Shown here: piece by piece, positions 2,431-27,696 of the stretch | How positions within the stretch are numbered: the first letter of the stretch is position 1 | Layout of the letters: each line of letters starts with the position of its first letter | DNA from: Candidatus Dojkabacteria bacterium HGW-Dojkabacteria-1 | GTDB lineage: Bacteria > Patescibacteriota > Dojkabacteria > SC72 | Length of the DNA: 64,000 bases | Direction: 5' to 3' | Assembly (NCBI GenBank): GCA_002840365.1 | Contig: PHAO01000001.1 | Location: 441,337-505,336, forward strand | Position numbers and translations under genes: made by a program | The notes under the pieces: generated by a model | Database searches by the model: none | What the model saw: only the letters and a program-made list of their open reading frames with translations | Told to the model about the DNA's origin: nothing

Positions 2431-2817
2431 ATGCCTGAAATTAGAGAAACAGGACAATATCAAATAGCATACGAAAGACTTTTACAAGAGCTTCATAAGT
2501 ATAATATTTCTGAAACAGAGTTCGATGATTACATATATCTTCTTTTGGATGAGGTAAAGAACAAAGTTAATGACGCAGGTAAGATACCTGAATACTCATA
2601 TACATTGTATGTAAATCTTCCAATGATTTATGAGTATAGCGGAAGTAATTATATAGAACTTCTATGTGGTTTTAATCCAATACCAGAATATGTAGATGAT
2701 ATGACTATAGAAGGTTCAATAATGATTCCAAAAAATGCAAGTGCAAGAATGAATCTGACAAATGGTGAATATGATGTCGTTATTTCTTGGCATGAAATAT
2801 TTTTAGAAAACAATTGA
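2431..2817 (+). CDS. hypothetical protein
   Basis: 128-aa ORF in an operon-like position after the M16 peptidase gene; no recognisable motif. Confidence 0.4.
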   Translation: MPEIRETGQYQIAYERLLQELHKYNISETEFDDYIYLLLDEVKNKVNDAGKIPEYSYTLYVNLPMIYEYSGSNYIELLCGFNPIPEYVDDMTIEGSIMIPKNASARMNLTNGEYDVVISWHEIFLENN

Positions 2818-2842
2818 CCATTAAGATATGATACATGTAATA

Positions 2843-2865
2843 TTTAGATATACTAAATATCTAAA
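2843..2865 (+). promoter_or_regulatory. candidate palindromic operator upstream of the FNR-family oxidoreductase gene
   Basis: TTTAGATAT-actaa-ATATCTAAA: perfect 9-bp inverted repeat with a 5-nt spacer, 17 nt upstream of the ATG at 2882. Confidence 0.25.
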
Positions 2866-2881
2866 TTGATTATCAATTACA

Positions 2882-3583: not shown

Positions 3584-4104
3584 TTTTTCATAAATTTCCT
3601 TATCTCTTTTTTAAGATATTCAATATCCTCATAACTATGATTATCATCCCTTTCATTGGGTCTTTTGTACTCTGTTGTTTTTACATTAAGACTCTTTGCC
3701 TTAAGTATTGTATCTAACTCTTTGTATCCAATTACCGGATCTTTAGGTTTTTGTATGAACAAAGCCTTTGTTTTTAAATTTTCCAATAGATAATCTACCT
3801 CATCACCCCTATTTAATGCCCAGTAGTAGGGGAAGCCAATAAATATATATGCGCCTACATCAAGGTATCCTAGCTTTTGTGCCTTCATACCTAATATACA
3901 ACCTGCACTCTTTCCTATTACATATGTTTTCCCTTGTATTTTTAAACCCATTATCTTATCTAATTCAGTATTCCAATCAATATTACCATCACCTATCCAA
4001 TGATTATAAAAGAGCATTAGTTTATCCTTTTCATCAAAGCTATCACGCAAAGATTCACACCATTGCTTATTATCTTTGTTGTTACCTGGGAGAAATAGAT
4101 ACAT
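3580..4104 (-). CDS. small alpha/beta serine hydrolase (YdeN/RBBP9-like esterase)
   Basis: 174 aa; GxSxG nucleophile elbow 'GKSAG'; Asp and His candidates in the C-terminal part (DDNHSYED). Confidence 0.5.
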   Translation of the reverse strand: MYLFLPGNNKDNKQWCESLRDSFDEKDKLMLFYNHWIGDGNIDWNTELDKIMGLKIQGKTYVIGKSAGCILGMKAQKLGYLDVGAYIFIGFPYYWALNRGDEVDYLLENLKTKALFIQKPKDPVIGYKELDTILKAKSLNVKTTEYKRPNERDDNHSYEDIEYLKKEIRKFMKN

Positions 4105-4195
4105 ATGCGTATATATTACAATTTATATATACATCTATATTGTAGTCTGTTTGTATTACTAATTCAAACTTAGTTTGGTATAATTCTCTAGTCAT

Positions 4196-4273
4196 GGTGG
4201 CTATAGCTCAATTGGTTAGAGCATCGGTTTGTGGAACCGAGGGTTGTGGGTTCAAGTCCCATTAGCCACCCCA
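4196..4273 (+). tRNA. tRNA-His(GUG): tRNA-His (anticodon GUG) with encoded G-1 and 3' CCA
   Basis: Cloverleaf folded by hand. Acceptor GTGGCTA pairs with TAGCCAC; D arm GCTC/GAGC; anticodon stem TCGGT/ACCGA with loop TTGTGGA; T arm GTGGG-TTCAAGT-CCCAT. An extra 5' G pairs with discriminator C. CCA is present in the genome. Confidence 0.85.
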
Positions 4274-5718
4274 TTTCCCAGTTTTTTGAAATCTACCAGC
4301 AAATCAAAGGGGTTTATGTAATCATATAGCAGATTCTTTCCATCCCATCTGATATTCGAAAGTACAGTGTTAATTAATATTGCTCTTTCTTCATCCAAAG
4401 CATTCTCAAATAGTTCTCCACTGTGCTTTGCAAGTTCTAATACATATTTAGCAGTGATATAGAAAGTATCCTCTGTTTGTTCTGATGAACGGATTTTATC
4501 AGTAACTTCTTTATACAACCTGTCATACTCTTTCGCTTTTTCTTCATAGAAACTACTAGTAATACTACCATCAACATATAGATCATAATTCTTTGATTTC
4601 ATTCTAGAATACCTTTCCTGTTCCCTGCGTAGATTTCTTACTCTGGAAATAGATACTTCTAAATTAGTTTCATTGATTGATTTCAAATCATTTAATATCT
4701 TCTCTGCATCATTTTCTGTTAATCTAATCCTATCAAATGCTTCTGCAAACTGCTTACTCAATTCTTCTTCACTTACATACTGGGCTCCATGTTTACCCTT
4801 ATATTCAGTACAACAATAGGAGTTCTTCCCATTATGCTCCTCTGGGCACATAGAATAACCGCAAATAGCACATCTTATTAATCTTCTATACTTAAATGGT
4901 TTCCCAGCATACTTACCTTTGTTTTTGTTTTGTAATCTACCTTCTCTAATTTCTTGTACTCTGTTAAATAAATCCTCTGATATTATTGTTTCATAACAAT
5001 GAGGGTATTCAATATTCTTCTTCTGATACAAGATGATACCTATATAAAACTTGTTTGTAAGTATTCTAGCAATTTGAGAACCAGCAAATTCAACATTAAA
5101 TAATTCTAGGATTTTCTTTCTCAATGTCCTATCAGAATAACTATTGGTTGAATATAACTCATACATCTTCTTTACAATCAGAGATTCCTCATAGTTAACT
5201 TCAACTGTTTTCTCCTTGTCATTAATTGTAATGTTGTTATATCCATAGGGTGCTTTCGTTAGTAATTCTCCATTCCTCATCTTTTGTTCAAATCTCCTTT
5301 TGACATTATCCCTTATTGAATCAGAATAATACTGTGCTAGTGCAACCCCCATTGAGAATTTAAATAGGTCCACAGCGGGGCTAGATGCCCGTAGAACGAG
5401 GTTATCTGATGGGAAGTGTAATTGTACCTTTTCTCTCTTTCGAAGGTCATCAAACAACGGTAAATAGCGATTGAAATCTCTTAATAACCTATCTATCTTA
5501 TCAGTAATAAGTGCAACTGTTTTATTCGTTTCTTCTATCGTTTTTAATACTTCTTCAAATTGCTTTCTATTCCCTTTATATGCACTTTCTGAAATATCAA
5601 ATATATCCTTATCACTGTATTCTAGATTATTACTCTTTGCATATTCTATTAATCTTGGTATCTGCTGTTCTGTTGATTGCTCATCTGTTGATACTCTCGC
5701 TAATAGAATTGCTCTCAT
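4252..5718 (-). CDS. large serine recombinase (resolvase/invertase catalytic domain + recombinase domain + zinc ribbon)
   Basis: N-terminal 'AILLARVSTDEQ' catalytic Ser motif; 488 aa; Cys-rich C-terminal zinc ribbon (CAICGYSMC...CCTEYKGKHG); 3' end overlaps the antisense of the tRNA-His 3' end by about 22 nt. Confidence 0.85.
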   Translation of the reverse strand: MRAILLARVSTDEQSTEQQIPRLIEYAKSNNLEYSDKDIFDISESAYKGNRKQFEEVLKTIEETNKTVALITDKIDRLLRDFNRYLPLFDDLRKREKVQLHFPSDNLVLRASSPAVDLFKFSMGVALAQYYSDSIRDNVKRRFEQKMRNGELLTKAPYGYNNITINDKEKTVEVNYEESLIVKKMYELYSTNSYSDRTLRKKILELFNVEFAGSQIARILTNKFYIGIILYQKKNIEYPHCYETIISEDLFNRVQEIREGRLQNKNKGKYAGKPFKYRRLIRCAICGYSMCPEEHNGKNSYCCTEYKGKHGAQYVSEEELSKQFAEAFDRIRLTENDAEKILNDLKSINETNLEVSISRVRNLRREQERYSRMKSKNYDLYVDGSITSSFYEEKAKEYDRLYKEVTDKIRSSEQTEDTFYITAKYVLELAKHSGELFENALDEERAILINTVLSNIRWDGKNLLYDYINPFDLLVDFKKLGNGVANGT

Positions 5719-8700
5719 ACTTTAAAAGATTCTACAATTTGGATTTCTTCTTCGCTTAAATCATATATTTTATAAAGGATTGTATCGATTTCAGATTCAA
5801 TATTTTTTATTTCGAGTACCATTTCTTTTAACTTTTTCTGCTTATCTTTAATCCAATTGTGTAATTTCTCCTTTTCTTCAATTGAAAGTCGTGTTTTCTT
5901 TTTATCAAGTATCTCTACAATTTGATTCCAACCATATTCGAGTATGTTTTTTAAATCTAAATGATATTCATTACCCAAAAATACACTGGTTTCTTCATTT
6001 AACATATAAAAATCTTTATACTTACTTTCAAGATCAAAAACATATTGCTCTATAACTAATATATCCTCTTTGTTAGTATCCTTGATTGGGAATAGGAGTA
6101 ATGGTCCCTTATCAACTTGTAATAATTCCCCAAGTAATTTACCTCTATTTCTGAACCAAAAATTACTAATAGTTGAATTAAGTAGTGCAGTTAAATACTT
6201 TAAATTAATCCTATCAGTAACAATAAAGTTGAGTGCTCTTGAACCATAATATTCAGAGATTGTATAGAAGAATGTAGGATATTTTACTCTAACACCACAC
6301 ACAATTTTATCTCCTGCTTTAAAGAACTGCTCATTTCTCTCCCTATGTAAATAATAGTAGGGTTTGTTAGGAGTTTTATACTTAATTTTCGCATCAATTA
6401 ATACATCTTTGTACTTATTAAAATGAGTATATAAATTGGGGAAATCCTCTAATTTTTTATCATCAAAATTTTTTGAGGACAGGTAAATAATAAAACTATT
6501 TGTACTTCCAACAGAATATCTTGAAACATTAGTATAAAAAGGTTTAATAAATTCTCTTTCAGAAATGTTAAATTTTGTTAAATCATCCACAATAAAACAC
6601 TCATCTGGTGCTCCCACAATTCCCTGTGCTACTTCATTATCATTCAGTGTAAATGTTCTACTCTTTGAAATCTTATCTATAACTTTTTCAAATTTCTCAT
6701 CTGAAAACACTATATTCCCATTACCTATTTTCTCCCTATCTATTGTTGCGTCAATACTTTTTATACTGTCAGAATAGTTTATACTCCTATCATTTAATAC
6801 AAGTTGAATCAAATCCAAACCAATCTGTTTATCTAATATCTTTGTATATTCAACTTTGTATCTATTCTTTACATTCTTTTCTTTTTTAAAAACAAATATC
6901 ATAGTTTGAATACCTGCATCTTTAAAAACTTGAAATCCTCCAAAATCAAAATAGGAGATGATTTCACCCTCATTAAGTATCTTTTCCCTAAAAATTGATG
7001 CACCAGCATTTGTAATCCAATTATTAGGAGCAATAAAACTTAAATATCCATTTTCCTTTAACAAATCAATAGATAAACAAGCAAAATAGGTCCAAATATC
7101 CATTTTCCCTTGATAATAAGGTCCATCATGTAATCCAGTAAATGCTGTTTTATTAGTATATTCTTTAATGTAAGGAGGATTCGCGACTATTACATCAAAA
7201 CCACCATTGTCAATGATATCTTTATACTCAACCCCCCAATTAAATGCTTTATCCCCAGCGATAGCGGGATCATCTATTAGTGAATTACCACACTTAATAT
7301 TTTTATCTAAATTCTGTAAAGGTTCAGTATTCTTCGCTGTTTTTAACCATAATGCAAGTTTTGTAATTTCCACACTTTCTTTGTTAAGATCTACCCCAAA
7401 GAGGTTATTAAGTAGGATTCCATTATTTACACTCGCAGGATCATAATCATCAATTTCAAGATTGAGTTTCCCGGACTCTCTTATATTCTGCAATTTCTCT
7501 TCAAATCTCCTAGCATATTCTTGTTTAAGATAAGTATGTGCTTGATTTAAAATTGCACCACTACCACAAGCAGGATCCAATATCTTAATTTCATTCAATT
7601 TATCGGGATTTTCTTCTAAAAACCTTCCTACTGTATTTTCTACTATGTATTTTGTAATATATTCTGGCGTGTAGAATATTCCATCTTTTTTCCTTCTTCC
7701 CTTTTTTTCAGTAACTGTTAAATCTTCAATCATCTCCAATCTATTATCACTATCCTTTACTTGCATTACATTCTCTTTAATCCTTTCTAAATCAGAAATA
7801 CTTTGCTCAAATATGTGTCCTAGGATATTAACATTAATATCTGTTTGATAATCATATTCCGCAAGTTCTAATATCCTTTTCCAAAAACTATCTAGAATGA
7901 TAAGGTTATCCAATATCTCATCTTTCTTAAACAATCCCCCATTATAAGCATTAATTGGTGGAGTAACTCTTGAATTTCCCTCATCAATAGATTTAAACAA
8001 ACCCTTAAACTCATTCCAAACTCTCTCATCACTACTAGCAAAAGAACTCAATGCTCTCTCATAGGTATTCTTCACTATTTCGTAGGGTAATAATTCTGTT
8101 GTATCTTCACAGAATAGTGTAAATACAATTCTATCTAGTAATTTCTGTGTTTTCTCTAATAATACCTCTGCTGATATACCTTTGTTATTTTCTAATAGAT
8201 GGTTAAGCAATCCCAATCTAACCTCTTTATACTTTGCATAATAATCATTTGTTATATCCTGCTCTTGTTGATTACTTTCCAAAGATAGTACATCTACAAC
8301 ACTGTTATCCTCTTTCTTAATTAGGTTATCTTTTGATAGTAAGAAATAGAATCTTTTAAATTCCTGCTCATCTAGTAAATCTAATACCATAAATCTTTCA
8401 AAATATTCTTGTGATCTAGATTTACTATATAAACGAATCTCTTTGAAATTTGATACTATAATCCATTTACATTTATCTTCTTTACTTGCATAGTTAAATG
8501 CTTGGTCAACAGGTGTTTGCTTTGTATCTCTGTGTTGCTTTTTATCTAAATCTGTTTTTGCATCCTTTAACTCAATTACAACACGAGTATCCTTATTATC
8601 TTTTGTAAAGAACCCTAAACTTCCATCTGGTTCACCAACATTGTTTTCTATTCTTGGATGTTGTATTAAGGTATATTCTTGCTCTGCGGAAGTTACATCA

Positions 8701-8900
8701 TCATAGTTAAGGATATTTTCAAAAAAGGTTTGTAGGAATTTACCTTGAATGCTTTTTTCTTTTGTATTTTCTAAATCACTATCCTTTAATGCTCTCTGCC
8801 ATTTATCTATTAATGTGTTAATCTCCTCTAATTTCTTTCCTGTTGGAAACTCAAAATTTGTGTATTTCTGCTGTAATAATTTCTTGTTAATTAGATTCAT
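5715..8900 (-). CDS. Type IIG/IIL restriction-modification enzyme (MmeI-like single-chain endonuclease plus N6-adenine methyltransferase)
   Basis: 1061 aa. N-terminal PD-(D/E)xK-type motif (EPDGSLGFF...VVIELKDAK). MTase motif I 'ILDPACGSGAILN' and motif IV 'VIVANPPYIKE' (gamma-class NPPY). Long C-terminal TRD-like region. 4-nt overlap with the recombinase gene. Confidence 0.7.
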   Translation of the reverse strand: MNLINKKLLQQKYTNFEFPTGKKLEEINTLIDKWQRALKDSDLENTKEKSIQGKFLQTFFENILNYDDVTSAEQEYTLIQHPRIENNVGEPDGSLGFFTKDNKDTRVVIELKDAKTDLDKKQHRDTKQTPVDQAFNYASKEDKCKWIIVSNFKEIRLYSKSRSQEYFERFMVLDLLDEQEFKRFYFLLSKDNLIKKEDNSVVDVLSLESNQQEQDITNDYYAKYKEVRLGLLNHLLENNKGISAEVLLEKTQKLLDRIVFTLFCEDTTELLPYEIVKNTYERALSSFASSDERVWNEFKGLFKSIDEGNSRVTPPINAYNGGLFKKDEILDNLIILDSFWKRILELAEYDYQTDINVNILGHIFEQSISDLERIKENVMQVKDSDNRLEMIEDLTVTEKKGRRKKDGIFYTPEYITKYIVENTVGRFLEENPDKLNEIKILDPACGSGAILNQAHTYLKQEYARRFEEKLQNIRESGKLNLEIDDYDPASVNNGILLNNLFGVDLNKESVEITKLALWLKTAKNTEPLQNLDKNIKCGNSLIDDPAIAGDKAFNWGVEYKDIIDNGGFDVIVANPPYIKEYTNKTAFTGLHDGPYYQGKMDIWTYFACLSIDLLKENGYLSFIAPNNWITNAGASIFREKILNEGEIISYFDFGGFQVFKDAGIQTMIFVFKKEKNVKNRYKVEYTKILDKQIGLDLIQLVLNDRSINYSDSIKSIDATIDREKIGNGNIVFSDEKFEKVIDKISKSRTFTLNDNEVAQGIVGAPDECFIVDDLTKFNISEREFIKPFYTNVSRYSVGSTNSFIIYLSSKNFDDKKLEDFPNLYTHFNKYKDVLIDAKIKYKTPNKPYYYLHRERNEQFFKAGDKIVCGVRVKYPTFFYTISEYYGSRALNFIVTDRINLKYLTALLNSTISNFWFRNRGKLLGELLQVDKGPLLLFPIKDTNKEDILVIEQYVFDLESKYKDFYMLNEETSVFLGNEYHLDLKNILEYGWNQIVEILDKKKTRLSIEEKEKLHNWIKDKQKKLKEMVLEIKNIESEIDTILYKIYDLSEEEIQIVESFKV

Positions 8901-8912
8901 AGTATATAGTAA

Positions 8913-10064
8913 TTATAAATTGTTTCCACCAACATTAATAGTATCAGTATAACTCTTCAAATCCAATGGTTTGTAGGTTTTTAAATAATTGCTTATAAAT
9001 TCAAAACATTCAAGGTTATCTTCAACAATATTTATACTATTCATTTTATACTTTATCCCATACCAACTTCTGCTGGAATATACACTTTCAATTATCTTCC
9101 GAAATTCTCTTACTCCGAATGTTTTACAGTATTCAATGAAACCATAGATAGATAAGAGGTTGTTTAACTTAATATCTGGATTATTACTAACTAACTCTCT
9201 GAAAAACAACTCTTTATTATCTATTGAGCAGTTTAATAGATTGTAGTTACTAACAATATCATTCCAAACACTTCTCAATACTGATAATGATATATCACTA
9301 TCACATACCTGCACTAAATTGAAATCCCTTTTGAAAACACTACGAATCTTCTGAATACTGTTATATCTTACTTCAATTCTTAATATCTCAAATTTCTTTT
9401 GGCTGTTTATACTATCAAAGATATTAAATTGTATAGCATTTCCTTTCTCAATAGATCTAGAATCGCTTATCCTTCCCTTTTGTAAATCTTTCTTCTTATC
9501 ATACAGAATTACCTCAAATGAATTAGTATGGAATCTAATACTATCTCCCTTATTTCTATAATCCTTTTCTGTTAAATCATACCTTAAACTTAAATCTGTT
9601 TTAGAAACTTCCTTTGTTATGAAATAAGGTATTACATATTCAGGTAAGGGTATATTCTTTGAAAAATGGACTTTACATACTAATGCTTTTTTCAGTACAT
9701 CCGATGATACCTCTACACTCATCTTTCTTAATGAATCTGATAACTTTTCAACTACATTCTCTATATCTTCATTCCTTAACTCATCAAAATTGTTTAAGAA
9801 CACTATCTTTGGGGCGGAGAATTGAATATACAGATAGATTAATGGTAGAGCATTTACCATTTTTTTTCTTAATGTAAGTTGCGGTTTATATATTCTATTC
9901 TTGTAATCTGCTTGTGTAGGGTTGTTATATGCTTCGATATACCCCCTTGCTCCAAAACGAGAGTAGGGCGGATAGTAGAAATTGTAGGTATTCGGAGTAA
10001 AAGCATTGTGATCTAATATCTTAAAATCCTTTTCGTTTAATCTTAATGTAATTGTATCGATCAT
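8913..10064 (-). CDS. Rep_trans-family (pT181 RepC/D-like) rolling-circle replication initiator
   Basis: 383 aa; motifs 'VILYDKKKD' and 'ILRIEVRY' resemble the 'RIYNKKQE' and 'RVEIELKR' signatures of the pT181 Rep family; N-terminal 'MIDTITLRL' similar to Rep_trans N-termini. Confidence 0.5.
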   Translation of the reverse strand: MIDTITLRLNEKDFKILDHNAFTPNTYNFYYPPYSRFGARGYIEAYNNPTQADYKNRIYKPQLTLRKKMVNALPLIYLYIQFSAPKIVFLNNFDELRNEDIENVVEKLSDSLRKMSVEVSSDVLKKALVCKVHFSKNIPLPEYVIPYFITKEVSKTDLSLRYDLTEKDYRNKGDSIRFHTNSFEVILYDKKKDLQKGRISDSRSIEKGNAIQFNIFDSINSQKKFEILRIEVRYNSIQKIRSVFKRDFNLVQVCDSDISLSVLRSVWNDIVSNYNLLNCSIDNKELFFRELVSNNPDIKLNNLLSIYGFIEYCKTFGVREFRKIIESVYSSRSWYGIKYKMNSINIVEDNLECFEFISNYLKTYKPLDLKSYTDTINVGGNNL

Positions 10065-10068
10065 ATTT

Positions 10069-10341
10069 TTATTTTTCTAATTTACTCACTCTACAACCAC
10101 TGTTTGTACCCTTTTTAACTATTTGTACTCTTTCATTGATTTGCATTAATGTGTATATGTACAATGAAAGAGGATTAGTAAGTTCCTCTTGGATAATTGG
10201 AGTAGGATATTCTTTTATTAGTACATTCCGAACCACTTTTCTCATTACAAAGCACAAAAGATACCAATTTAGGTATCTCTTTGATTTTCCCTGGGAGTGA
10301 AGATATAAAATATCATTCTGCCGCCAGTATCGGAACCTCAA
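10069..10341 (-). CDS. small hypothetical protein inside the island
   Basis: 90-aa ORF co-directional with island genes, 4 nt upstream of rep; no motif recognised; may not be real. Confidence 0.25.
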   Translation of the reverse strand: MRFRYWRQNDILYLHSQGKSKRYLNWYLLCFVMRKVVRNVLIKEYPTPIIQEELTNPLSLYIYTLMQINERVQIVKKGTNSGCRVSKLEK

Positions 10342-10544
10342 AGAGGTTGGGCAGTTTTAATATTTATATAACTAATTATAACACAATTTTTTGGACAACA
10401 AAAACTAGCAACTACATTAACAATTGCTCATGGTTAGGAAATAGGTTTTTGAAGTTATTTAGGAACAGGGTAGAATTTATAGATTTAATTGATTCAATAA
10501 ATTTCTGTTCAAAATACGCCCACTGCTTCACCCCATCTTACCTA

Positions 10545-11909
10545 CTAACTACTCGTAGTCCAAGTAACACCACCATACCTATCATTAATATTAGCTTTCT
10601 TGTTTGAATATATTTCATTCAATATTTTTGGTACTGCAGCTAAATCCTTTGGTATTTGAAATAGATGCTCAACAACCTTCCCTCCCTTTGAATCTCGTAC
10701 CCTTTGATCAATAACTAAATAAGCATTAGTAAAAAAATCATACGGAATATACTCACCACCAGGCAATATATCATCAACAGCTCTAGCATGCATTCTCCAA
10801 TTAGACATTTGTTTAATTGCAGCTACCCAATCACTAGGAGTTCTATTTAAATGCCTCGTGGTATTAAGAGACCTTACAACTGTATTGAAATCTATATTCT
10901 TTCTTTCTGCATCTGTTCTTAAAACCTTAGTATACATATAGTCCTCAACACCTACATTAGGTGTGTAATGAGTAATTGCTCTCATACCTGAGACATAGTT
11001 AGCAACCTTACTCATCAAAGCACCACCAGGAAGTGTAATAAACTTTTTCTTATTCTCTATTTGATATCCTAATTGAGTAGGCCCAACAGGAGTAGTAAGT
11101 AGTGGTTTACCACTTTCTTTTTCCATTATCGCAAACAAATCTTTTGTCCCAACAGCAGTTAATTTTCCTCTTACCAAATTGTCATACATAGTTCTAAAAG
11201 GAGTCTTAACTAAAAGACCCCTTTCATCATTAAAACTAAGAATTGTTTCAGCATCCATTTGATATACAAAATCAGGAGCATATCCCTTTACTATTTGTGC
11301 ATAAAGGAAATTAGAAACATCTCTTAATGCTCTAACCTTACCTTTATTCAAATCACTAGAATCTTTTTGTTGCCTAATTAAAAAAGCTCTGCTTTCTCCC
11401 TCTCTTTCATCAATCTCTGCTATCTCAACAGGAATATCCCAAGCAGTAGCAGCATCAATATCTTCAGTATTAGGTTTGCGAGTAATTATTCTTCTAATAC
11501 TTTCCTCTTTTAAATGCTTCTTAAGTAGAGAATCTATACGGTTATACATCTCTTCTCCAATTCTTGGTGATGCTCCTCCTCCATTGTTACATACTAATAG
11601 AAAATCCAGATCGATATTCGAATCTTTTGCTTGTACAAGTAAGTCTTGAAAAGATTTCTCAAACATTGAAGATGTTAAGTATGATTCATCCTCTTCCCAA
11701 AGGGAAATAACTACGCAACCACGAGGTCTTTTTCTTTCAACTTTGTTCTCATTTAAAGACTGTTCCAATTCTGTTACACCTTCTGAATACATTTCTAAAA
11801 TATTCTCTCTTAACACCTCGTTAGGATTTACTTCTGTAGCCTCTATACTGTTGTTAGGTTCCATATACATATACATATATAGGTTAATAATAGATGATAA
11901 CATATTCAA
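10545..11909 (-). CDS. island cargo protein of unknown family
   Basis: 454-aa ORF, first gene of the minus-strand island block; no Walker, NTase, nuclease or capsid signature recognised; three in-frame ATGs within (ATGTAT)3 at the 5' end. Confidence 0.5.
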   Translation of the reverse strand: MNMLSSIINLYMYMYMEPNNSIEATEVNPNEVLRENILEMYSEGVTELEQSLNENKVERKRPRGCVVISLWEEDESYLTSSMFEKSFQDLLVQAKDSNIDLDFLLVCNNGGGASPRIGEEMYNRIDSLLKKHLKEESIRRIITRKPNTEDIDAATAWDIPVEIAEIDEREGESRAFLIRQQKDSSDLNKGKVRALRDVSNFLYAQIVKGYAPDFVYQMDAETILSFNDERGLLVKTPFRTMYDNLVRGKLTAVGTKDLFAIMEKESGKPLLTTPVGPTQLGYQIENKKKFITLPGGALMSKVANYVSGMRAITHYTPNVGVEDYMYTKVLRTDAERKNIDFNTVVRSLNTTRHLNRTPSDWVAAIKQMSNWRMHARAVDDILPGGEYIPYDFFTNAYLVIDQRVRDSKGGKVVEHLFQIPKDLAAVPKILNEIYSNKKANINDRYGGVTWTTSS

Positions 11910-11983
11910 TATGTCTCGACATTTTGCTTTATAGAATAGTATAATTACCCTTATTCAATTCCTTTCAAAAGGAGGTGATTAAA

Positions 11984-12103
11984 GTGCTCAGTAAGCTTTG
12001 GACTAAACTTGTCCATGCTGTGCAGTGGTATTGTTGCTGCAAATGCGACGATTGTCGCAAAGATGACCACTGCGGAGGTCCCAGATGCCATCGCTACGAT
12101 TAG
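11984..12103 (+). CDS. cysteine-rich 39-aa peptide (VLSKLWTKLVHAVQWYCCCKCDDCRKDDHCGGPRCHRYD), GTG start
   Basis: Perfect SD 'AAGGAGGTGA' 5 nt upstream of GTG; 8 Cys and 3 His; region visibly GC-richer than its flanks; followed by a 12-bp hairpin; not in the ORF track because under 60 aa. Confidence 0.4.
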   Translation: MLSKLWTKLVHAVQWYCCCKCDDCRKDDHCGGPRCHRYD

Positions 12104-12120
12104 GATAGGCATCACAAGAG

Positions 12121-12168
12121 GGTAGTCCCAATCACAGATTTATATCTTTCGTATTGGGACTACCTTTT
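12121..12168 (+). terminator. 12-bp perfect stem-loop followed by TTTT (terminator-like)
   Basis: GGTAGTCCCAAT-(20 nt loop)-ATTGGGACTACC then TTTT; 17 nt after the Cys-peptide stop. Confidence 0.35.
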
Positions 12169-12236
12169 CATTCAATTCATTCCTTTCACAAACCTTTACA
12201 TGCTATACTTTATCTATTAAGTTCATTTATATTTGA

Positions 12237-12467
12237 ATGAATAAAAAAATAGCAGTTATCGAAGATGATGGAATATTACTTAAGGCATTAAACATAGAGC
12301 TACTAAGTAAAGGATTTGAAGTAATTTCTGCAACAGATGGAGAGACAGGATTAGGATTGTATATAGCAAAAGCAGTAGTAGAAGCTCATGGTGGTAAAAT
12401 ATGGTTTGAATCTAAAAGTAGAAAAGGAACTACCTTTTACTTTTCTCTTCCAAAAGGTAATAATTAA
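12237..12467 (+). pseudogene. chimeric remnant of a two-component system (receiver N-terminus fused to histidine-kinase HATPase C-terminus)
   Basis: 76-aa ORF: '[36 protein letters not shown]' is receiver-like; '[35 protein letters not shown]' matches the HK G2 box and C-terminal segment; an in-frame deletion scar. Confidence 0.5.
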
Positions 12468-12496
12468 ATATTAACTTAATATCTTTATTCATCTCC

Positions 12497-12925
12497 ATGG
12501 ATAAAAACACAAAATCCACTGCAAGCAGAATTACTGAAGCAGTTTTTGGAATACTCTTTAATCTTCTTTTCTACTATCTCTTAAACAGATTCTATACACT
12601 AGTTCCATTTTTAAATGAAGATTTTGAAAGAATATTACCAATATACAATCTCGCAATAATGGTATCCATCTTTATACATGCTTCTAGAATTCTCTTTGAA
12701 AGTAAAATATACAAAGATATTGGTGAAATCGTTAATACAGGATTTTTTGTATATATTGCATACTTACTTTGGACTATATTTCCATTTAATCTTGAATGGT
12801 TTAACAATACAGCTCTATGGAATATATTGATAAGATTTCTAATTGTAGTTCCTGCATTTATTGCTTTTATTAGTGCTTTTGTATCCCTATTTAAAACCTT
12901 AATAGATATAGGTAGGAAAGTATAA
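12497..12925 (+). CDS. small integral membrane protein (4 TM) of unknown function
   Basis: 142 aa, hydrophobic segments throughout. Confidence 0.5.
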   Translation: MDKNTKSTASRITEAVFGILFNLLFYYLLNRFYTLVPFLNEDFERILPIYNLAIMVSIFIHASRILFESKIYKDIGEIVNTGFFVYIAYLLWTIFPFNLEWFNNTALWNILIRFLIVVPAFIAFISAFVSLFKTLIDIGRKV

Positions 12926-13066
12926 TCCTCTTACCAACCCTATAGTATCATGATATAATATCTCCTGTTCAGTCTTGAGACTTTGCGAGTTGGTCGCTAA
13001 CAAGGTTTCTGTTTTAGACTAAACAAATTGCACTTTAATAATCAACGAACAAATAGGAGATAATCG

Positions 13067-13711
13067 ATGAAAAAGCTTCTTGCTTTAATAGTCCTACTGG
13101 TACTGTGCACTGGCATTGTTCTGGTAACAGAGAAAGTTACAGCGCAAGGTCAGGACACTTGCCCGCAAGGTAATGGCTGGGTTAAGGTTGATGACTTGAG
13201 TGGATATTCTTACACTTTTGATGCTCCCGAAGGGACATTGATTGTGGAGAGCTGCTACAAGGCATCTACCACTGTTGTGTTTGAAACTTACAATCCCCCC
13301 CAGGAATCAGTGACTATTACAAGCACTGTAATAAATCCTGGAGGTCAGATTGCTGAGTTATCACATGCAAGTTTCAAGCTTGTAGTAAAACCAACGGCAA
13401 CACCTCCGATTGAGGAAACGCCTACAGCAACTCCTCCGGTCGAGGAAACGCCTACAGCAACACCTCCGGTCGAGGAAACACCAACGGCAACGCCTCCAGT
13501 TGAGGAAACGCCTACAGCAACACCTCCGGTCGAGGAAACACCAACGGCAACACCTCCAGTTGAGGAAACGCCAAGAGCAACAGAGACACCAGGAGAAATT
13601 ATCACTACGGTTCAAACCGGTGGTGGTGGTATCGCTCCTCTCTTAATCCTGCTAGGCTTTGGAGGTGCATTCCTTCTTTGGGCATTTTTTCGCTCTCGCA
13701 TCGCGAGGTAA
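13067..13711 (+). CDS. secreted cell-surface protein with a conserved N-terminal domain, Thr/Pro/Glu-rich decapeptide repeats and a C-terminal TM anchor
   Basis: Signal peptide. An N-terminal domain of about 80 aa is paralogous to the protein at 37676-38785. TATPPVEETP repeated about 6 times. C-terminal 'GGGG-hydrophobic-RSRIAR' sorting-signal-like tail. GC-richer than the genome by eye. Confidence 0.7.
   Translation: MKKLLALIVLLVLCTGIVLVTEKVTAQGQDTCPQGNGWVKVDDLSGYSYTFDAPEGTLIVESCYKASTTVVFETYNPPQESVTITSTVINPGGQIAELSHASFKLVVKPTATPPIEETPTATPPVEETPTATPPVEETPTATPPVEETPTATPPVEETPTATPPVEETPRATETPGEIITTVQTGGGGIAPLLILLGFGGAFLLWAFFRSRIAR
13391..13590 (+). repeat. 30-nt tandem repeat (about 6.5 copies) encoding the TATPP(V/I)EETP linker
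   Basis: Near-identical 30-mers 'cc(a/t)ac(g/a)gcaac(a/g/t)cctcc(g/a)(a/g)t(t/c)gaggaaac(g/a)' seen directly. Confidence 0.85.
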
Positions 13712-14420
13712 AAAAATAGCCCTTGTGGGAGTTATCCTAGTGCTGATAACTGCTTTTGTTTCAGCACAAACAGTCAAAGAAAATGTGCCAGAAGTGGCGC
13801 AAAGTACTGAGACTGTCGTAGTAACATCTCCTACCCATACCCTTTCGCCTTCGGCAACTCATATCCCTACACAAGTAGTAGTGGAACAAATTGAGGAGCC
13901 AACCCCAATTCCAACCTTACAGCCAACGGAAGAACCGGAGAACATCAGTCTCCAAGGTATCTATACCGTGACTGTCCAGTCGGATGCAATAACCGATTGG
14001 TATAGGAGCTTCTTTAAGGAGCTTAAGGTGGAACTGTGCCAAGAGCCCTGCACTGCAGAGCAAATAATGGCGCAGTTGGGAAAACAAAGCGACAAAGAGT
14101 GGGTAGCAGTCCAACACGGAAGAGTCTTGTACGTCCATTCCGGTTGGAGTATAACTTCTGGTCCCGAGTTTGGAGAAATACTTCTCAGAGTTCATAACTC
14201 TGGAGACCTGAAGTCTGCTGTTATCTGCCTAGAGGAAAGGCGCTGCTTCCAAGTAGTGGACCTTGTACTCCTAGGTAGGGGATCTATAGGTGATAACATA
14301 TCCACTGGAGAGTTGTTCAGCGTAGAACATGGAGACTACTTCATCGTAACTTGCAGTGAACGCTTAATTCCGGGTTTGGAAACACCCAAACTGATCCTCC
14401 AGATTAGAAAAATCGAATAA
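13659..14420 (+). CDS. secreted protein, Thr/Pro-rich N-terminal region plus a Cys-containing C-terminal domain, unknown function
   Basis: ORF-track start at 13659 overlaps the upstream gene by 53 nt; the true start may be GTG 13725, giving a signal peptide MGVILVLITAFVSAQ; GC-richer region. Confidence 0.5.
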   Translation: MEVHSFFGHFFALASRGKKIALVGVILVLITAFVSAQTVKENVPEVAQSTETVVVTSPTHTLSPSATHIPTQVVVEQIEEPTPIPTLQPTEEPENISLQGIYTVTVQSDAITDWYRSFFKELKVELCQEPCTAEQIMAQLGKQSDKEWVAVQHGRVLYVHSGWSITSGPEFGEILLRVHNSGDLKSAVICLEERRCFQVVDLVLLGRGSIGDNISTGELFSVEHGDYFIVTCSERLIPGLETPKLILQIRKIE

Positions 14421-14427
14421 GTGCAAA

Positions 14428-14477
14428 AAGGAAGGGTCTTCGCGACCAAAGCAATAAAGATCCTTCCTTCGATTTTC
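14428..14477. terminator. imperfect 13-bp hairpin between convergent genes (candidate bidirectional terminator)
   Basis: AAGGAAGGGTCTT-(15 nt)-AAAGATCCTTCCTT followed by a T-rich tract. Confidence 0.35.
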
Positions 14478-14671
14478 TAAGACCTCTTTTGAAAAAATTT
14501 CAAATATACAATAGGTAATATACCTACAGTATTAAAAATCAATATACATATATACCATGCTAATTGGTTATTTTTTGCTGCTTTCCACAAGGCAATAGCC
14601 TTCCAAATACCTTCCCACAAAGAAAGTAAAAGAAGAATAGGTAACCATGCCATTAATATTTCTGTATCCAT
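14477..14671 (-). CDS. small 2-TM membrane protein, PLD-nuclease N-terminal (PLDc_N)-like family
   Basis: 64 aa; pattern W..A...WKA.K......W......N..G...Y resembles PLDc_N small membrane proteins. Confidence 0.4.
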   Translation of the reverse strand: MDTEILMAWLPILLLLSLWEGIWKAIALWKAAKNNQLAWYICILIFNTVGILPIVYLKFFQKRS

Positions 14672-14791
14672 ATATAAATATTTTTAACTTATATCAACAT
14701 CATACATTCAAATGAACAATTTTGTTAATATATTTTTCTTAAATATTTTCTGATATAAAAAAAGAGCAAATGGGAACAGAAAGGAGTTAAA

Positions 14792-14920
14792 ATGGTCATT
14801 GTAACTGTTGCATGTCCATGCTGTGGACAGAAGTTTACGGGTACAGGAGAAACGGAACAAGAAGCAAGTGAACTTGCACACGAATCCCTTAATGAACATT
14901 TAGATCTAGAAATTTGTTAA
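14792..14920 (+). CDS. 42-aa zinc-ribbon-like peptide (MVIVTVACPCCGQKFTGTGETEQEASELAHESLNEHLDLEIC)
   Basis: RBS AAAGGAG 7 nt upstream of ATG; CPCC...C motif; followed by a 14-bp perfect hairpin; not in the ORF track because under 60 aa. Confidence 0.35.
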   Translation: MVIVTVACPCCGQKFTGTGETEQEASELAHESLNEHLDLEIC

Positions 14921-14931
14921 ACCCTTTTGCC

Positions 14932-14975
14932 AGTAGAGGCTGTATCGATTTCATATCAAATATACAGCCTCTACT
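14932..14975 (+). terminator. 14-bp perfect hairpin downstream of the small peptide ORF
   Basis: AGTAGAGGCTGTAT-(16 nt)-ATACAGCCTCTACT; no immediate T-run, so function uncertain. Confidence 0.3.
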
Positions 14976-15080
14976 AACTACCTTGTATATTTTAAGAAAA
15001 TAAAAGAAAATATACACATTAGAAAACTCATCAAAACTACAATTTTTTCCTCTATTTTTTTAGTAACAATACTACTTACT

Positions 15081-16664
15081 TTGCTAATATATTCCTTCTT
15101 TTTGTATGAAAAATTTAAATCACCGATTGAAATTCCTAAATATTCATATCAATTAAAAATTCCTACATTAGTGTATAACTCAAAAGAGCTTGAAGTATTA
15201 CCAAGTAATTTTGAAAAAGTTGTAAAAGAAAACAGTATTAAACTTCAAAAAGACAATATTGTTTCACTACTTAACGATGGGTATACATCAATTGAGAAAG
15301 AAGAATTAATCAATATATCCTCTGATACCCCCCTTCTTTTAACAAGTGAAAGTGTCAAAGAATATGTATTACAAAATCTTTCTTTTGAAGATGAGACTCT
15401 AAGTAAAAAGAGTGATTTTGAAAGAGGAAAAATACTTCTAGACTTAAAATACAAGTCTCTCTTTTTACTACCATTCCTCTCCTCAACTGAAAGAAATACC
15501 GTATTAGAAATGTATAAAGGAGATATTACACTTGAGCAGATACAAAACGAAGATATTTTCAAAAAGCTACTTAACCTCTCTGAGAACAAAGAGAAGTACA
15601 TCTCCCTTACCCAATTAAAAGAAGTCTTGATAAAGAATGGAGAAAAACAAATTCTCAATGAAGATATTTCTAATCCAATATACCTAGAAGAAAATAATGA
15701 GTATTACACAAGTCTTTTGGAATATGTTAAAGAGAGAAGAGAAATATTAAAAGATTTTGGAATATATACAGACGAATATGAAGAACTAATATCAGATATT
15801 CAAAAGATAATAGAGAAAGATACAAGTATATATTCAAAGATACTTCATCAAAAAGGAGAGTATTTACTTCTAAAAGAGGTAGACGGAGTATTAACAATCG
15901 CATCAGTAAAGGACAAAAGAGAGAATACAAAGATAAACAATAGCAATTTCGATGAAGAGTATGAAGTTAATCGTACAATGCAATCAAATGGTACTGTTCG
16001 TTTACCTGTCATTATGTATCATCAAATTGAAAATGTTCCTGCAGGAGCATCCTCCTTTGTAGCTGGTCTATTTACTTCCCCCGAGGAGTTCGAGAGACAG
16101 ATTGCATATTTGACAAAAAAGAATTACAAAACAGTTTCTTCAAGGGAATTCTATGAAATATTACAAAGTGGTAAAAATCCAGAACAAAAAACAGTAATGC
16201 TTACCTTTGACGATAGTACTATCTCTCACTATACAAATGCATACAGAATACTTAAGAAATACAATCAAATTGGTACATTCTTTGTTACATCACATAGATC
16301 TCAAATATCTAATGCACAATTAAAAGAAATGTCAGACAATGGAATGGATATACAATCTCATACACAATCTCATCCTGATTTAGTAAAGGTATATGATGCA
16401 GGTAGAATGCAAAGTGAAATAGGGGGAAGTAAAATTGAACTTGAAGCAAGAACAGGAAGGAGTGTAATAGCTCTTGCATATCCAGGATGTGTTGCTGATG
16501 GAAAGGCGTATGGAGCTATGAGTAGTAATGGATATCTTTTGGGTTTCTCTTGTGGAAAAAGTATAGATCATAGAATATCCTCTAGGTATTCACTTGCTAG
16601 AGTACATAATCCATACAATGTAGAGGATTTAAAAAAGATTCTTTCTGGTATATATCCTTTTTAG
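15081..16664 (+). CDS. polysaccharide deacetylase (CE4/NodB homology domain) with a long N-terminal domain of unknown function
   Basis: C-terminal 'VIMYHQI', 'LTFDDSTISHY' and 'HTQSHPDL' motifs typical of the NodB domain (TFDDG, H-x-x-H). Confidence 0.7.
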   Translation: MLIYSFFLYEKFKSPIEIPKYSYQLKIPTLVYNSKELEVLPSNFEKVVKENSIKLQKDNIVSLLNDGYTSIEKEELINISSDTPLLLTSESVKEYVLQNLSFEDETLSKKSDFERGKILLDLKYKSLFLLPFLSSTERNTVLEMYKGDITLEQIQNEDIFKKLLNLSENKEKYISLTQLKEVLIKNGEKQILNEDISNPIYLEENNEYYTSLLEYVKERREILKDFGIYTDEYEELISDIQKIIEKDTSIYSKILHQKGEYLLLKEVDGVLTIASVKDKRENTKINNSNFDEEYEVNRTMQSNGTVRLPVIMYHQIENVPAGASSFVAGLFTSPEEFERQIAYLTKKNYKTVSSREFYEILQSGKNPEQKTVMLTFDDSTISHYTNAYRILKKYNQIGTFFVTSHRSQISNAQLKEMSDNGMDIQSHTQSHPDLVKVYDAGRMQSEIGGSKIELEARTGRSVIALAYPGCVADGKAYGAMSSNGYLLGFSCGKSIDHRISSRYSLARVHNPYNVEDLKKILSGIYPF

Positions 16665-27693: not shown

Positions 27694-27696
27694 TTG

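Follow-up and report, generated by a model that had tools for sequence, protein, structure and literature searches.

In Gram-positive bacteria, substrate-specific sortases are encoded in operons together with the proteins on which they act: SrtB accompanies its NPQTN substrate IsdC, and class C pilin sortases lie beside their pilins. A lifestyle of attachment to other cells is assumed for CPR bacteria (Patescibacteria), and most of the machinery involved is unannotated. Members of this group commonly encode sortases as well as cell-surface and pilus proteins, which are thought to mediate cell-cell interaction, and a sortase family is present in over half of their genomes (Méheust et al. 2019, PMC6744442). 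In C. difficile, the sortase substrates CD2831 and CD3246 are under the control of a c-di-GMP-II riboswitch (PMC4591827), and a collagen adhesin of Bacillus thuringiensis is also riboswitch-controlled (PMC4933901).

The locus described here lies in a window of 64,000 nucleotides from Candidatus Dojkabacteria bacterium HGW-Dojkabacteria-1 (contig PHAO01000001.1), and consists of a gene for a surface protein (gene 1) followed by a gene for a putative partner enzyme (gene 2). Two types of such cassettes occur in Dojkabacteria: type A, to which genes 1 and 2 belong, is GC-rich and carries a VxTG motif, while type B, of which the window also holds a copy, is AT-rich and carries an LAxTG-like motif. 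The reading that we consider reasonably probable is that genes 1 and 2 form a chromosomal operon for a surface protein and a divergent sortase-like partner, in which the high GC content is a persistent property of the cassette and not the sign of a recent foreign insertion. The coordinates of all features are collected in Table 1.

This arrangement resembles that of the Gram-positive operons in that the gene for a putative membrane-anchored His/Cys transpeptidase lies directly beside that for a secreted protein, whose C-terminus comprises a short T-G-type motif, a hydrophobic helix and a basic tail; furthermore, the modelled β-barrel of the type B partner places His, Cys and Arg at canonical strand positions. 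It differs in its motifs, which are VxTG and LA(A/P)T(A/G/S) and not LPXTG, in the lack of detectable similarity to Pfam and NCBIfam sortase models or to PDB sortases, in the Lys that type A carries where the catalytic Arg is expected, and in its CPR host. Since the proteins are invisible to standard sortase models, they probably fall outside the CPR sortase family fam000526. As in C. difficile and B. thuringiensis, a c-di-GMP-class riboswitch leads a surface-adhesin gene (that of type B here, and that of type A in relatives); unlike in those systems, however, it precedes an operon that also encodes a private sortase-like enzyme, the predicted type B aptamer of the window has RF03169, the GAG variant family, as its best match, and the type A copy in the window has no aptamer core.

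Table 1. Features of the type A and type B cassettes, with positions in the window
Feature	Position	Strand	Basis or description
Promoter-like site TTACCA-17-TATAAT, extended TG	12931-12959	+	Consensus scan, 10/12 matches; pattern match only
Conserved leader hairpin of the type A operon	12966-13025	+	Fold -17.1 kcal/mol, z = -2.0
Gene 1, type A surface protein, 214 aa	13067-13711	+	ORF, domain family, hydropathy
Gene 1, predicted signal peptide	13067-13144	+	Hydrophobic N-terminal segment
Gene 1, N-terminal two-Cys domain	13145-13393	+	Domain family
Gene 1, tandem repeat array	13391-13582	+	TRF: period 30 nt, 6.4 copies, 60-nt higher-order unit
Gene 1, stalk TATPP(I/V)EETP x6	13394-13573	+	
Gene 1, putative sorting signal VQTGG	13610-13624	+	
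Gene 1, TM	13631-13690	+	Hydrophobic C-terminal segment
Gene 1, basic tail RSRIAR	13691-13708	+	
Gene 2, type A sortase-like protein	13716-14420	+	N-terminal basic residues and TM anchor, Pro/Thr-rich linker, catalytic-type domain
Gene 2, His138	14136-14138	+	Numbering from GTG 13725
Gene 2, Thr209-Cys210	14349-14354	+	Numbering from GTG 13725
Gene 2, Lys222	14388-14390	+	Numbering from GTG 13725
Terminator-like hairpin after gene 2, then CGAUUUUC	14428-14469	+	Fold -18.7 kcal/mol, z = -3.0
Type B sortase-like protein, 228 aa	36990-37676	-	His142, Cys206, Arg214 invariant
Type B paralog surface protein, AT-rich	37676-38785	-	Same N-domain, different middle, C-terminal LAATAAG, TM and basic tail
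c-di-GMP-II-class riboswitch aptamer, type B leader	38801-38884	-	Rfam RF03169

The surface protein and its repeat stalk

The N-terminal domain of gene 1 is a small, unannotated two-Cys domain. The original prediction held that about 80 of its residues are shared with the product of the AT-rich gene at 37676-38785 on the reverse strand, and the alignment confirms this over 85 aa, of which 47 are identical (55%; BLASTP E = 1e-31). It had also proposed a family of surface proteins, and this family proves to be large: an exhaustive representative search places the domain in 237 clusters at 50% identity, and its members, which are present in Chloroflexota, CPR and Actinobacteria, end in C-terminal signals of the sortase type (LPxTG, LAxTG-like, AGGxGPS or VxTG) followed by a TM segment and a basic tail. 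The stalks of large members contain SpaA, SdrD-B or Ig-like domains. The spread over these groups comes from a scan of genome contigs with a 12-sequence alignment of the N-domain.

In gene 1 itself, hydropathy peaks are found at residues 1-24 and 188-208, followed by the tail RSRIAR, and this layout of a signal peptide and a C-terminal motif, helix and basic tail is kept in the type A relatives, among which the V-x-T-G, TM and basic tail are conserved. The LPXTG pentapeptide is present neither in gene 1, which has VQTGG, nor in the paralog, which has LAATA; neither protein is matched by PF00746 or TIGR01167, and the only Pfam or NCBIfam match in gene 1 is a sub-threshold one to Extensin_1 on the repeat. 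The candidate cleavage site is VQT/G.

Between these two regions lies the stalk, for which about 6.5 perfect 30-nt repeats had been claimed. The period of 30 nt and the copy number, which is 6.4 by TRF, stand, but the nucleotides match to only 83% (period 30) or 91% (period 60), and it is the peptide alone that repeats exactly, as TATPP(I/V)EETP, the first unit having Ile where the five others have Val. At synonymous sites, neighboring units differ from each other, following a higher-order pattern of 60 nt. The expected tendency of the array to vary in copy number is seen among relatives, since the ortholog in L023, whose cassette DNA is ~81% identical, has seven peptide units, homogenized as TVTPPVEETP, against six in the window.

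The N-domain of gene 1 is 62-64% identical to members outside the clade, and thus slightly closer to them than to its own paralog (55%); gene 1 also lacks a Cys-rich insertion that is found in the type A proteins of L018 and L012. These affinities, together with the absent insertion, leave room for a recombination event or a xenologous replacement.

Base composition of the cassette

That both genes are GC-richer than their surroundings, as originally predicted from the sequence, is borne out by windowed GC, per-gene GC and GC3. In 500-nt windows, 13001-14500 has 45-48% GC, with ~26-37% on both sides, and the genes at 13067-13711 and ~13716-14420 have GC contents of 0.487 and 0.463, as compared to 0.324 ± 0.021 for the 55 other ORFs (z ~7-8). 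GC3 reaches 0.363 in gene 1 and 0.440 in gene 2, against 0.222 ± 0.030 in the other 55 ORFs (maximum 0.302), with z ~4.7 and ~7.3, respectively. Because these synonymous sites are also outlying, the anomaly is not just one of amino-acid composition. The differing composition that had been noted for the two copies of the surface protein therefore holds at synonymous sites as well, and GC3 is not elevated in the type B genes.

These values bear on the idea that the high GC is a mere by-product of linkers and repeats rich in Pro, Thr, Ala, Gly and Glu, and is uninformative with regard to history or selection. Gene 1 does have very high GC1 (0.58) and GC2 (0.52), the surface-protein genes of L012, L026 and L028 have a GC3 barely above background (0.28-0.34), and other members of the N-domain family likewise exceed the GC of their own loci. 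A by-product of this kind is nonetheless highly improbable, given that GC3 stands at 0.36 and 0.44 against 0.22 ± 0.03, that the N-domain part of gene 1, repeats excluded, has a GC3 of 0.38 as compared to 0.19 in the homologous part of the type B paralog, and that the catalytic domain of gene 2, which is no low-complexity linker, nonetheless ranks first in GC3 in each lineage.

The cassette is not peculiar to the window. In the related contigs L022-L025 it occupies the same site, with the same downstream genes, while L012, L018 and L026-L031, which are more distant, carry it at other sites, and the order of surface protein and partner is conserved at every locus with enough sequence. In the more distant Dojkabacteria, types A and B are separated by no more than a few kb, both with a riboswitch, whereas in the lineage of the window they are 24 kb apart. 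All type A cassettes recovered (L018, L012/L026/L027, L028-L030, L031 and L022-L025) are GC-richer than their flanks, and the type A sortase-like gene has a GC3 of 0.36-0.47, against 0.23-0.32 in most neighboring long ORFs. Since high GC recurs in type A throughout the related genomes examined, it does not speak for a recent foreign insertion here; it fits better as a conserved property of the type A cassette than as a mark of recent arrival.

The term “insert,” as well as the suggestion that one copy had been acquired from a GC-richer relative, should be considered in this light. Like atypical-composition islands that have been read as horizontal transfers, the segment shows a sharp deviation of both GC and GC3 over whole genes; unlike them, its edges are marked by neither an integrase nor a tRNA nor repeats, its deviation is conserved in deeply diverged cassettes, and its leader is of native type. 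Flanking direct repeats, att-like sites and other insertion scars were searched for and none was found, nor was there an empty site, a donor, or absence of the cassette from close relatives; “insert” was thus an interpretation only. With all recovered type A cassettes being GC-rich and with neither scar nor donor, recent acquisition from a GC-richer relative is not established. An assembly chimera was ruled out, as the same junctions occur in independent assemblies, including an independent ENA contig of 547 kb.

Further features of the window include a second, similar GC island at 26257-28212, which was absent from the original prediction, a fused two-component-system remnant upstream of the cassette and, 7 kb upstream, a serine recombinase and restriction-modification island adjoining tRNA-His.

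A horizontal acquisition is possible but rather unlikely, and would mean that the cassette came from a GC-richer organism (such as a neighboring member of Chloroflexota, or a different lineage of Dojkabacteria or CPR) and has not yet drifted to the composition of its host; it may have come by xenologous replacement, the ancestral type A cassette having formerly stood beside type B. The GC3 excess is indeed larger in the window (+0.14 and +0.22) than in L018 or L012 (+0.04 to +0.15), the site differs from that in L012, L018 and L026, the leader has lost the riboswitch core, the N-domain is nearest to members outside the clade and is devoid of the type A insertion, the two-component-system remnant suggests rearrangement, and the recombinase island by tRNA-His is close at hand. 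However, no att-type repeats join the GC island to this tRNA-His/serine-recombinase element; the GC step falls on the start and stop codons, the AT-rich promoter-like site and leader lying outside it and the leader being homologous to those of relatives; the genes at 10545-12925 have native composition; and the gene 2 family was recovered only from Dojkabacteria or metagenomic sequences, the contigs being low in GC and Dojkabacteria-like. As for a donor, the best N-domain matches outside the clade reach only 62-64%, as compared to 55% for the in-genome paralog, and none is closer than 64% over 84 aa. In addition, with every other type A cassette being GC-richer than its host, composition cannot date a transfer. 

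In the reading favored here, the GC-richness is a persistent property of a fast-evolving surface cassette and may be kept up by selection, by a GC bias tied to recombination or by exchange that has recurred between Dojkabacteria; an old or recurrent transfer within this group may have taken place as well.

The downstream gene as a candidate sortase-like enzyme

The start of gene 2 has been placed differently by each method: the longest ORF, 13659-14420 on the forward strand, encodes 253 aa from a TTG, NCBI begins at GTG 13725 and Prodigal at GTG 13740. The overlap of 53 nt with gene 1 that had been proposed is exact for the longest ORF, but the TTG, or an internal GTG as its alternative, is less favored by the comparative data than a conserved ATA at 13716, behind a GAGG and right after the stop codon of gene 1; in type A, such a Shine-Dalgarno sequence and ATA are found at or overlapping this stop, and initiation there would be the favored reading. 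A programmed frameshift at the A7 run of the stop, joining genes 1 and 2, was discarded, the frame of gene 2 being +1 in the window and -1 in L018. The hairpin that follows gene 2 was not called by the consensus terminator scan, owing to its long loop.

The sortase-likeness of gene 2 was absent from the original prediction. Its protein, which is 100% identical to one of Ca. Dojkabacteria HGW-Dojkabacteria-1, shares only 31% identity with those of L018 and L012, and its N-terminus shows a conserved R-G-K-K and a hydrophobic segment followed by a Pro/Thr linker, in keeping with a predicted membrane anchor. Neither gene 2 nor the type B partner at 36990-37676 is matched by the Pfam and NCBIfam sortase models, with Pfam even at E ≤ 10, and profile searches of both families against PDB sequences returned no sortase, but noise only. 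For the type B partner, a sortase fold is modelled with confidence, in which residues 2-29 make up an N-terminal helix; H142, C206 and R214 are invariant in 102 sequences, and in the model H142 sits at the end of β4, C206 at that of β7 and R214 where β8 begins. The genes of this cassette are translationally coupled through a TAATG stop/start overlap; the likely ATG start of its surface protein is at 38779, and orthologs of the latter occur in L011 (84% identity) and L013.

With regard to type A, the downstream proteins of both types are collinear around H…G…L…TC…G, and the two profiles match with an hhalign probability of 15%, which is weak. The AF2 model of gene 2 has a sortase-like fold at low confidence, and does not constitute independent evidence because the MSA consists mostly of type B sequences. 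The His-(T/S)Cys-Arg triad of sortases is incomplete in gene 2: the catalytic Arg is not conserved, and its position, at the start of the last strand, is taken by Lys222, which is invariant in only four sequences. The absent Arg, the poor structure model, the lack of any match to sequence models and the mere handful of known type A sequences could all be explained if the product of gene 2 were no enzyme acting on that of gene 1: it might be a small and unrelated protein, membrane-bound or secreted, for instance a chaperone or an anti-sigma-like partner, or else the relic of a sortase, degenerate and now inactive, and the product of gene 1 would stay in the membrane by its C-terminal helix. This is unlikely in view of the His, the Thr-Cys and the nearby Gly and Pro residues, which are invariant at an overall identity of 31%, of the strictly conserved order and tight coupling with a protein that bears a sorting signal, of the collinearity with a family of confident sortase fold, and of the V-x-T-G that is conserved ahead of the TM helix in the partner. 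Most likely, gene 2 encodes the very divergent sortase-like anchoring enzyme of gene 1, an activity that is suggested by these sequence features.

Such a pair could operate as follows. The product of gene 1 would be exported via its signal peptide and would display the two-Cys N-domain on its Pro/Thr/Glu-rich repeat stalk, with a presumed cell-wall sorting signal (VQTGG, hydrophobic helix, RSRIAR) at its end. Gene 2, translated straight after the stop codon of gene 1, and probably from the non-canonical ATA behind the GAGG Shine-Dalgarno, would provide a membrane-anchored, extremely divergent sortase-like Cys transpeptidase, employing His138 and Thr209-Cys210, with Lys222 for the sortase Arg. 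This enzyme would recognize the V-x-T-G of the gene 1 product and cleave after Thr, and the cleaved protein would be attached to the cell envelope, or its copies joined together. In this reading, the type A cassette is the sister, now diverged, of the AT-rich type B at 36990-38884.

Riboswitch leaders and the significance of the family

Both cassette types normally stand behind c-di-GMP-II riboswitches. By reference to Rfam clan CL00127 (RF01786 and RF03169), the type B leader of the window is such a riboswitch and its own type A leader is not. The type B aptamer scores 50.7 bits with RF03169, whose gathering score is 40, and 86.8 bits with R1, a clade-specific covariance model; its homologs are found in L011, L013, L012, L018 and L026, and covariation is seen in helices P2 and P3. 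Intact aptamers also precede the type A genes of L018, L012, L026, L028, L029 and L031.

In the window, the promoter-like site upstream of the type A operon lies in AT-rich DNA, and the hairpin that follows it is near-identical to that of L023, though the cassette DNA of the two is only ~81% identical. Stems P1 and P2 are retained, as is the UGGUCGC loop, while the GGAGC…GCGAAACCG core is absent, and on the basis of a manual alignment the hairpin looks like the remnant of a c-di-GMP-II aptamer. The leader (12958-13066) gave no Rfam match at E ≤ 10 other than chance-level ones to miRNA and snoRNA, and was not detected by model R1 either, so its candidacy as an intact riboswitch was dropped. Because only this hairpin remnant of the aptamer has been kept, the type A cassette in the lineage of the window has probably escaped riboswitch control. 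GGDEF, EAL or HD-GYP motifs were not found within the window.

The locus makes an unannotated surface domain, common to CPR, Chloroflexota and Actinobacteria, amenable to experimental testing. Furthermore, structure modelling suggests that more than 100 “hypothetical” proteins of Dojkabacteria are sortase-fold enzymes that standard models miss, and unusual sorting motifs (VxTG, LAxTG-like) are here combined with second-messenger riboswitch control in a reduced genome. For genome scans, it provides a caution that a sharp GC island need not imply recent horizontal transfer, and it evokes the question of what maintains a gene-specific base composition in a small genome. A broader scheme, which is rather doubtful, is that Dojkabacteria possess an undescribed branch of sortases, unrecognizable by sequence and comprising His-Cys-Arg and His-Cys-Lys enzymes, each firmly paired with a single small surface protein, and with a c-di-GMP-II-class riboswitch as the ancestral control. 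Type A would then be a fast-evolving host-attachment cassette whose GC content is actively maintained, for instance through GC-biased conversion linked to recombination or through frequent exchange between lineages, and whose product might polymerize via the nearly invariant Lys of CYKA into a minimal sortase-built fiber.

Composition and context of the cassette

Gene 1, which encodes a surface protein, and the sortase-like gene 2 form together a cassette (type A) across which the GC content of a 500-nt profile rises from ~0.29-0.35 to 0.45-0.48 (13001-14500) and then falls to 0.31, the shift beginning at the ATG of gene 1 and stopping at the stop codon of gene 2 at 100-nt resolution. Both ORFs of the original prediction are present, with a 53-nt overlap, and their GC contents (0.487 and 0.463) exceed that of the 55 other ORFs of the window (0.324 ± 0.021). 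Third-position GC (GC3) is likewise far higher (0.363 and 0.440, vs 0.222 ± 0.030 in the other ORFs, none of which exceeds 0.302), and the anomaly therefore extends to synonymous sites. When the repeats of gene 1 are left aside, the part encoding its N-terminal two-Cys domain (N-domain) displays a GC3 of 0.38, vs 0.19 in the homologous part of an AT-rich paralog, which forms with a second sortase-like gene the type B cassette. Windowed profile and per-gene values agree that the genes are GC-richer than the surrounding DNA, as had been predicted.

An assembly artefact is ruled out, since the cassette recurs in an independent 547,547-bp ENA contig, where gene 1 is encoded amid the same neighbours, and in related contigs L022-L025, which belong to a set of homologous loci from other genomes or metagenomic contigs (L002-L031). 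L022-L024 share 81-83% DNA identity with the window, while the gene 2 product of L025 is 88% identical; the downstream DUF5652 and polysaccharide deacetylase genes are the same in L022, which L024 confirms partially. Hypothetical protein CVU76_02400, from a 733,750-bp contig of Candidatus Dojkabacteria bacterium HGW-Dojkabacteria-1, has 100% identity to the gene 2 product.

Elsewhere in the window, two GC-rich genes form a second island of this type (GC 0.45 and 0.48, GC3 0.40 and 0.57), whose boundaries likewise coincide with those of the coding region. The first product is a 478-aa membrane-anchored protein that carries a C-terminal M23 peptidase domain and, judged by eye, a lytic-transglycosylase-like 'VENS' segment; the second is a 172-aa multi-TM protein without family. 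In addition, a tRNA-His gene adjoins a large serine recombinase gene, next to which lie a restriction-modification fusion and an unannotated 383-aa gene, in a segment with the appearance of an integrated mobile element; a search of 4000-16000 revealed no att-like repeat.

Coordinates of the features discussed (window positions unless a locus is named)
Feature	Position	Strand	Description
Gene 1 ORF	13067-13711	+	214 aa, ATG start
Gene 2, longest ORF	13659-14420	+	253 aa counted from TTG
Gene 2, from gene 1 stop	~13716-14420	+	sortase-like
Putative ATA initiation sites	13705-13718		also L018 ~6530-6550; equivalents in L028, L031, L012
Tandem array in gene 1	13391-13582	+	30-nt period, 6.4 copies
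Type B surface gene (paralog)	37676-38785	-	AT-rich
Type B enzyme gene	36990-37676	-	sortase-like
Aptamer	38801-38884	-	c-di-GMP-II class, 'GAG' variant; Rfam RF03169, 50.7 bits (gathering score 40)
Probable two-component-system remnant	12237-12467	+	76-aa ORF
Second GC-rich island	26257-28212	+	two genes
Heliorhodopsin gene	24635-25396	+	Pfam PF18761, E = 1e-102; same Dojkabacteria genome
Element-like segment	4197-10064		resembles integrated mobile element
tRNA-His	4197-4273		
Serine recombinase gene	4252-5718	-	
Restriction-modification fusion	5715-8900	-	MmeI/Eco57I-type
L018 type B surface gene	2727-4022 (L018)	-	LAATG sorting signal
L003 weak tandem matches	3472-3577, 3598-3696 (L003)	+	23.8 and 20.1 bits, clade-specific model

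The surface protein and its family

The gene 1 product opens with a typical signal sequence (MKK, a hydrophobic stretch and VTA|QG), followed by an 83-aa N-domain, six stalk repeats and a sorting-signal-like C-terminus in which VQTGGGG precedes a 20-residue hydrophobic helix and RSRIAR. No model in Pfam or NCBIfam covers the N-domain. Its similarity to the paralog was confirmed by BLASTP (47/85 identities, E = 1e-31), and the surface-protein family that had been proposed is borne out by an exhaustive profile search, in which the domain was detected in 237 clusters at 50% identity (141 of them with E ≤ 1e-10), with sortase-type C-terminal signals. The N-domain nearly always lies straight after the signal peptide, and its two Cys, Trp, CYKA and SHASF motifs are invariant or nearly so; C-termini carry LPxTG, LA(A/P)T(G/A/S), (P/A)AGGxGPS or V-x-T-G, each with a hydrophobic helix and basic residues. 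Large members have additional SpaA, SdrD-B, DUF11 or Ig-like stalk domains, which are typical of Gram-positive adhesins and pilins. Reference genomes that encode the domain are those of Anaerolineae and other Chloroflexota, several CPR groups (Dojkabacteria, Collierbacteria, WWE3 and bins labelled Saccharibacteria) and two Actinobacteria.

Family genes of the low-GC genomes L002, L003, L005 and L008 also lie in local GC peaks (0.50 vs 0.36 in L002 and 0.54 vs 0.38 in L003, as total GC, with amino-acid and synonymous effects together). In L018, the type B surface protein retains the signal peptide of the clade and the sorting signal, and bears a different Cys/His-rich N-terminus in place of the N-domain, its 'head' being swapped within a constant export and anchoring frame.

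The array within gene 1 had been described as about 6.5 perfect repeats; period and copy number hold, but nucleotides match at only 83% at period 30 (91% at period 60), with units alternating between two synonymous variants. Exact repetition occurs at the peptide level only, as six TATPP(I/V)EETP units with Ile in the first. The L023 ortholog carries seven TVTPPVEETP units vs these six, as expected of repeats prone to copy-number variation, and unit sequence is homogenised inside each gene, copy number and unit sequence hence evolving together.

The sortase-like enzymes and the start of gene 2

Pfam/NCBIfam searches gave no family annotation for gene 2 or the type B enzyme gene. In each product, a hydrophobic anchor at the N-terminus is followed by a conserved His and, ~65-70 residues further on, a Thr-Cys; an N-domain gene immediately precedes the homologs in L018 and L012 (type A) and in L011, L012 and L018 (type B). 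Alignment of the two enzyme families is collinear, K, L, W, L, H, G, L, T, C and G being invariant, and a weak profile-profile match (E = 0.0017, probability 15%) aligned the His and Thr-Cys motifs. A combined profile search yielded 132 proteins of 203-249 aa without Pfam domain, all named members being from Dojkabacteria; the 120 matches listed comprise 118 of type B but only 2 of type A.

Foldseek with the type B model (pLDDT 87, 102-sequence alignment) returned sortases only in its top 50 hits. The model places the invariant His142 at the end of the fourth strand, Cys206 at the end of the seventh and Arg214 at the start of the eighth, which is where the His, Cys and Arg of the sortase triad canonically lie. 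Across the four type A sequences there is no variation at His138, Thr209-Cys210 or Lys222, but the Arg of the triad is not conserved; as a sortase, gene 2 failed both the sequence-model and the Arg tests. Predicted fold and triad thus argue for sortase family membership of type B only, and gene 2 is 'sortase-like'. Its conserved adjacency to gene 1, the V-x-T-G signal and its homology to a sortase-fold family suggest that it could act as the private sorting enzyme of the gene 1 product. The layout of both cassettes is like that of substrate-dedicated sortase operons, and sortases are reported to be common in CPR (PMC6744442).

Gene 2 had been proposed to start 53 nt inside gene 1 or at an internal GTG; the ORF overlap is real, but comparison disfavours both starts. 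In type B, surface-gene stop and enzyme ATG overlap as TAATG. In type A, the gene 2 frame stays open upstream of every annotated start, and encodes there a conserved segment of basic plus hydrophobic residues (R-G-K-K-I-A-L-V… in the window; K-E-(E/K)-K-I-R-N-I-… in L018, L012, L028 and L031), ahead of which no ATG, GTG or TTG is present in L012, L026, L028, L031, L023 or L025. The start region conserves an ATA behind a Shine-Dalgarno sequence (AAGGAGG, 5 nt and ATA in L018 and L028; AAGGAG, six A and ATA in L031; GAGG, 7 nt and ATA 13716 in the window), and in L018, L028 and L031 the ATA and the preceding stop codon overlap as ATAA. The arrangement favours initiation at or beside the gene 1 stop. 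The TTG 53 nt upstream is not conserved, and GTG 13725 (NCBI) or GTG 13740 (Prodigal) would truncate the anchor. A frameshift fusion of the two genes is unlikely, since the frame offset varies among lineages.

Riboswitches and the origin of the cassettes

The aptamer sits immediately upstream of the type B operon, and homologs of it are present ahead of type B in L011, L013, L012, L018 and L026 and ahead of type A in L018, L012, L026, L028, L029 and L031; seven of these aptamers (window, L011, L013, L012, L018) display compensatory changes in inner helices. In L012, L018 and L026, ~1-2 kb at most separates the two cassettes, whose region is syntenic with 32-42 kb of the window; the window lineage differs, with type A 24 kb from type B and downstream of the probable two-component-system remnant. 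This ORF looks like a deletion fusion, in which a response-regulator receiver N-terminus (…ATDGE) is joined to the C-terminal end of a histidine-kinase ATPase domain (HATPase_c match).

A hairpin in the window type A leader matches P1, P2 and the UGGUCGC loop by manual alignment; the GGAGC…GCGAAACCG core is missing, and neither Rfam nor a clade-specific model detected an aptamer there. The hairpin is probably still functional, being almost invariant between the window and L023 despite ~81% identity of the cassette DNA. In view of the homologous aptamers, the closeness of the cassettes in relatives, and the lack of any riboswitch at Anaerolineae or Actinobacteria N-domain loci, in-clade duplication of a riboswitch-adhesin-sortase unit is the simplest origin of both types. 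The ancestral riboswitch-bearing cassette has parallels in C. difficile, with sortase substrates under c-di-GMP-II control (PMC4591827), and in B. thuringiensis, with an adhesin controlled by a riboswitch (PMC4933901); a search of one literature library found no paper combining CPR, riboswitch and c-di-GMP. In L003, a 38% GC bin labelled Chloroflexia, tandem weak c-di-GMP-II matches ~2.2 kb upstream of an N-domain gene may represent a tandem riboswitch or chance.

The reading of the genes as a foreign insert is probably too simple: the GC deviation is real, but acquisition is not established, as in every locus examined type A cassettes exceed their flanks in GC content (0.44-0.47 vs ~0.35 in L018, 0.39-0.49 vs ~0.35 in L012, 0.41-0.52 vs 0.30-0.39 in L025-L031). 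GC3 of the type A enzyme gene is 0.36-0.47, vs 0.23-0.32 in most neighbouring ORFs, and that of type B genes is at background. Type A cassettes are old: the gene 2 product of the window shares 31% identity with that of L018 or L012, a comparison in which the type B enzyme reaches 46-47% and housekeeping proteins about 49-75%. A single recent import into this genome fails to explain a deviation common to diverged copies; the type A cassette has no boundary repeats, and over the N-domain the candidate donors reach 64% identity at most. In the window lineage, recombination or xenologous replacement from another Dojkabacteria is possible, because GC elevation is strongest there, the cassette has moved, and the gene 1 N-domain lacks the Cys-rich insertion of other type A proteins. 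The type A bias may stem from selection on mRNA, from GC bias associated with recombination or from recurrent exchange.

The original observation is essentially correct, and the locus, with its conserved compositional signature and decayed riboswitch, belongs to a divergent Dojkabacteria family of cassettes composed of a sortase-like enzyme and its proposed substrate.
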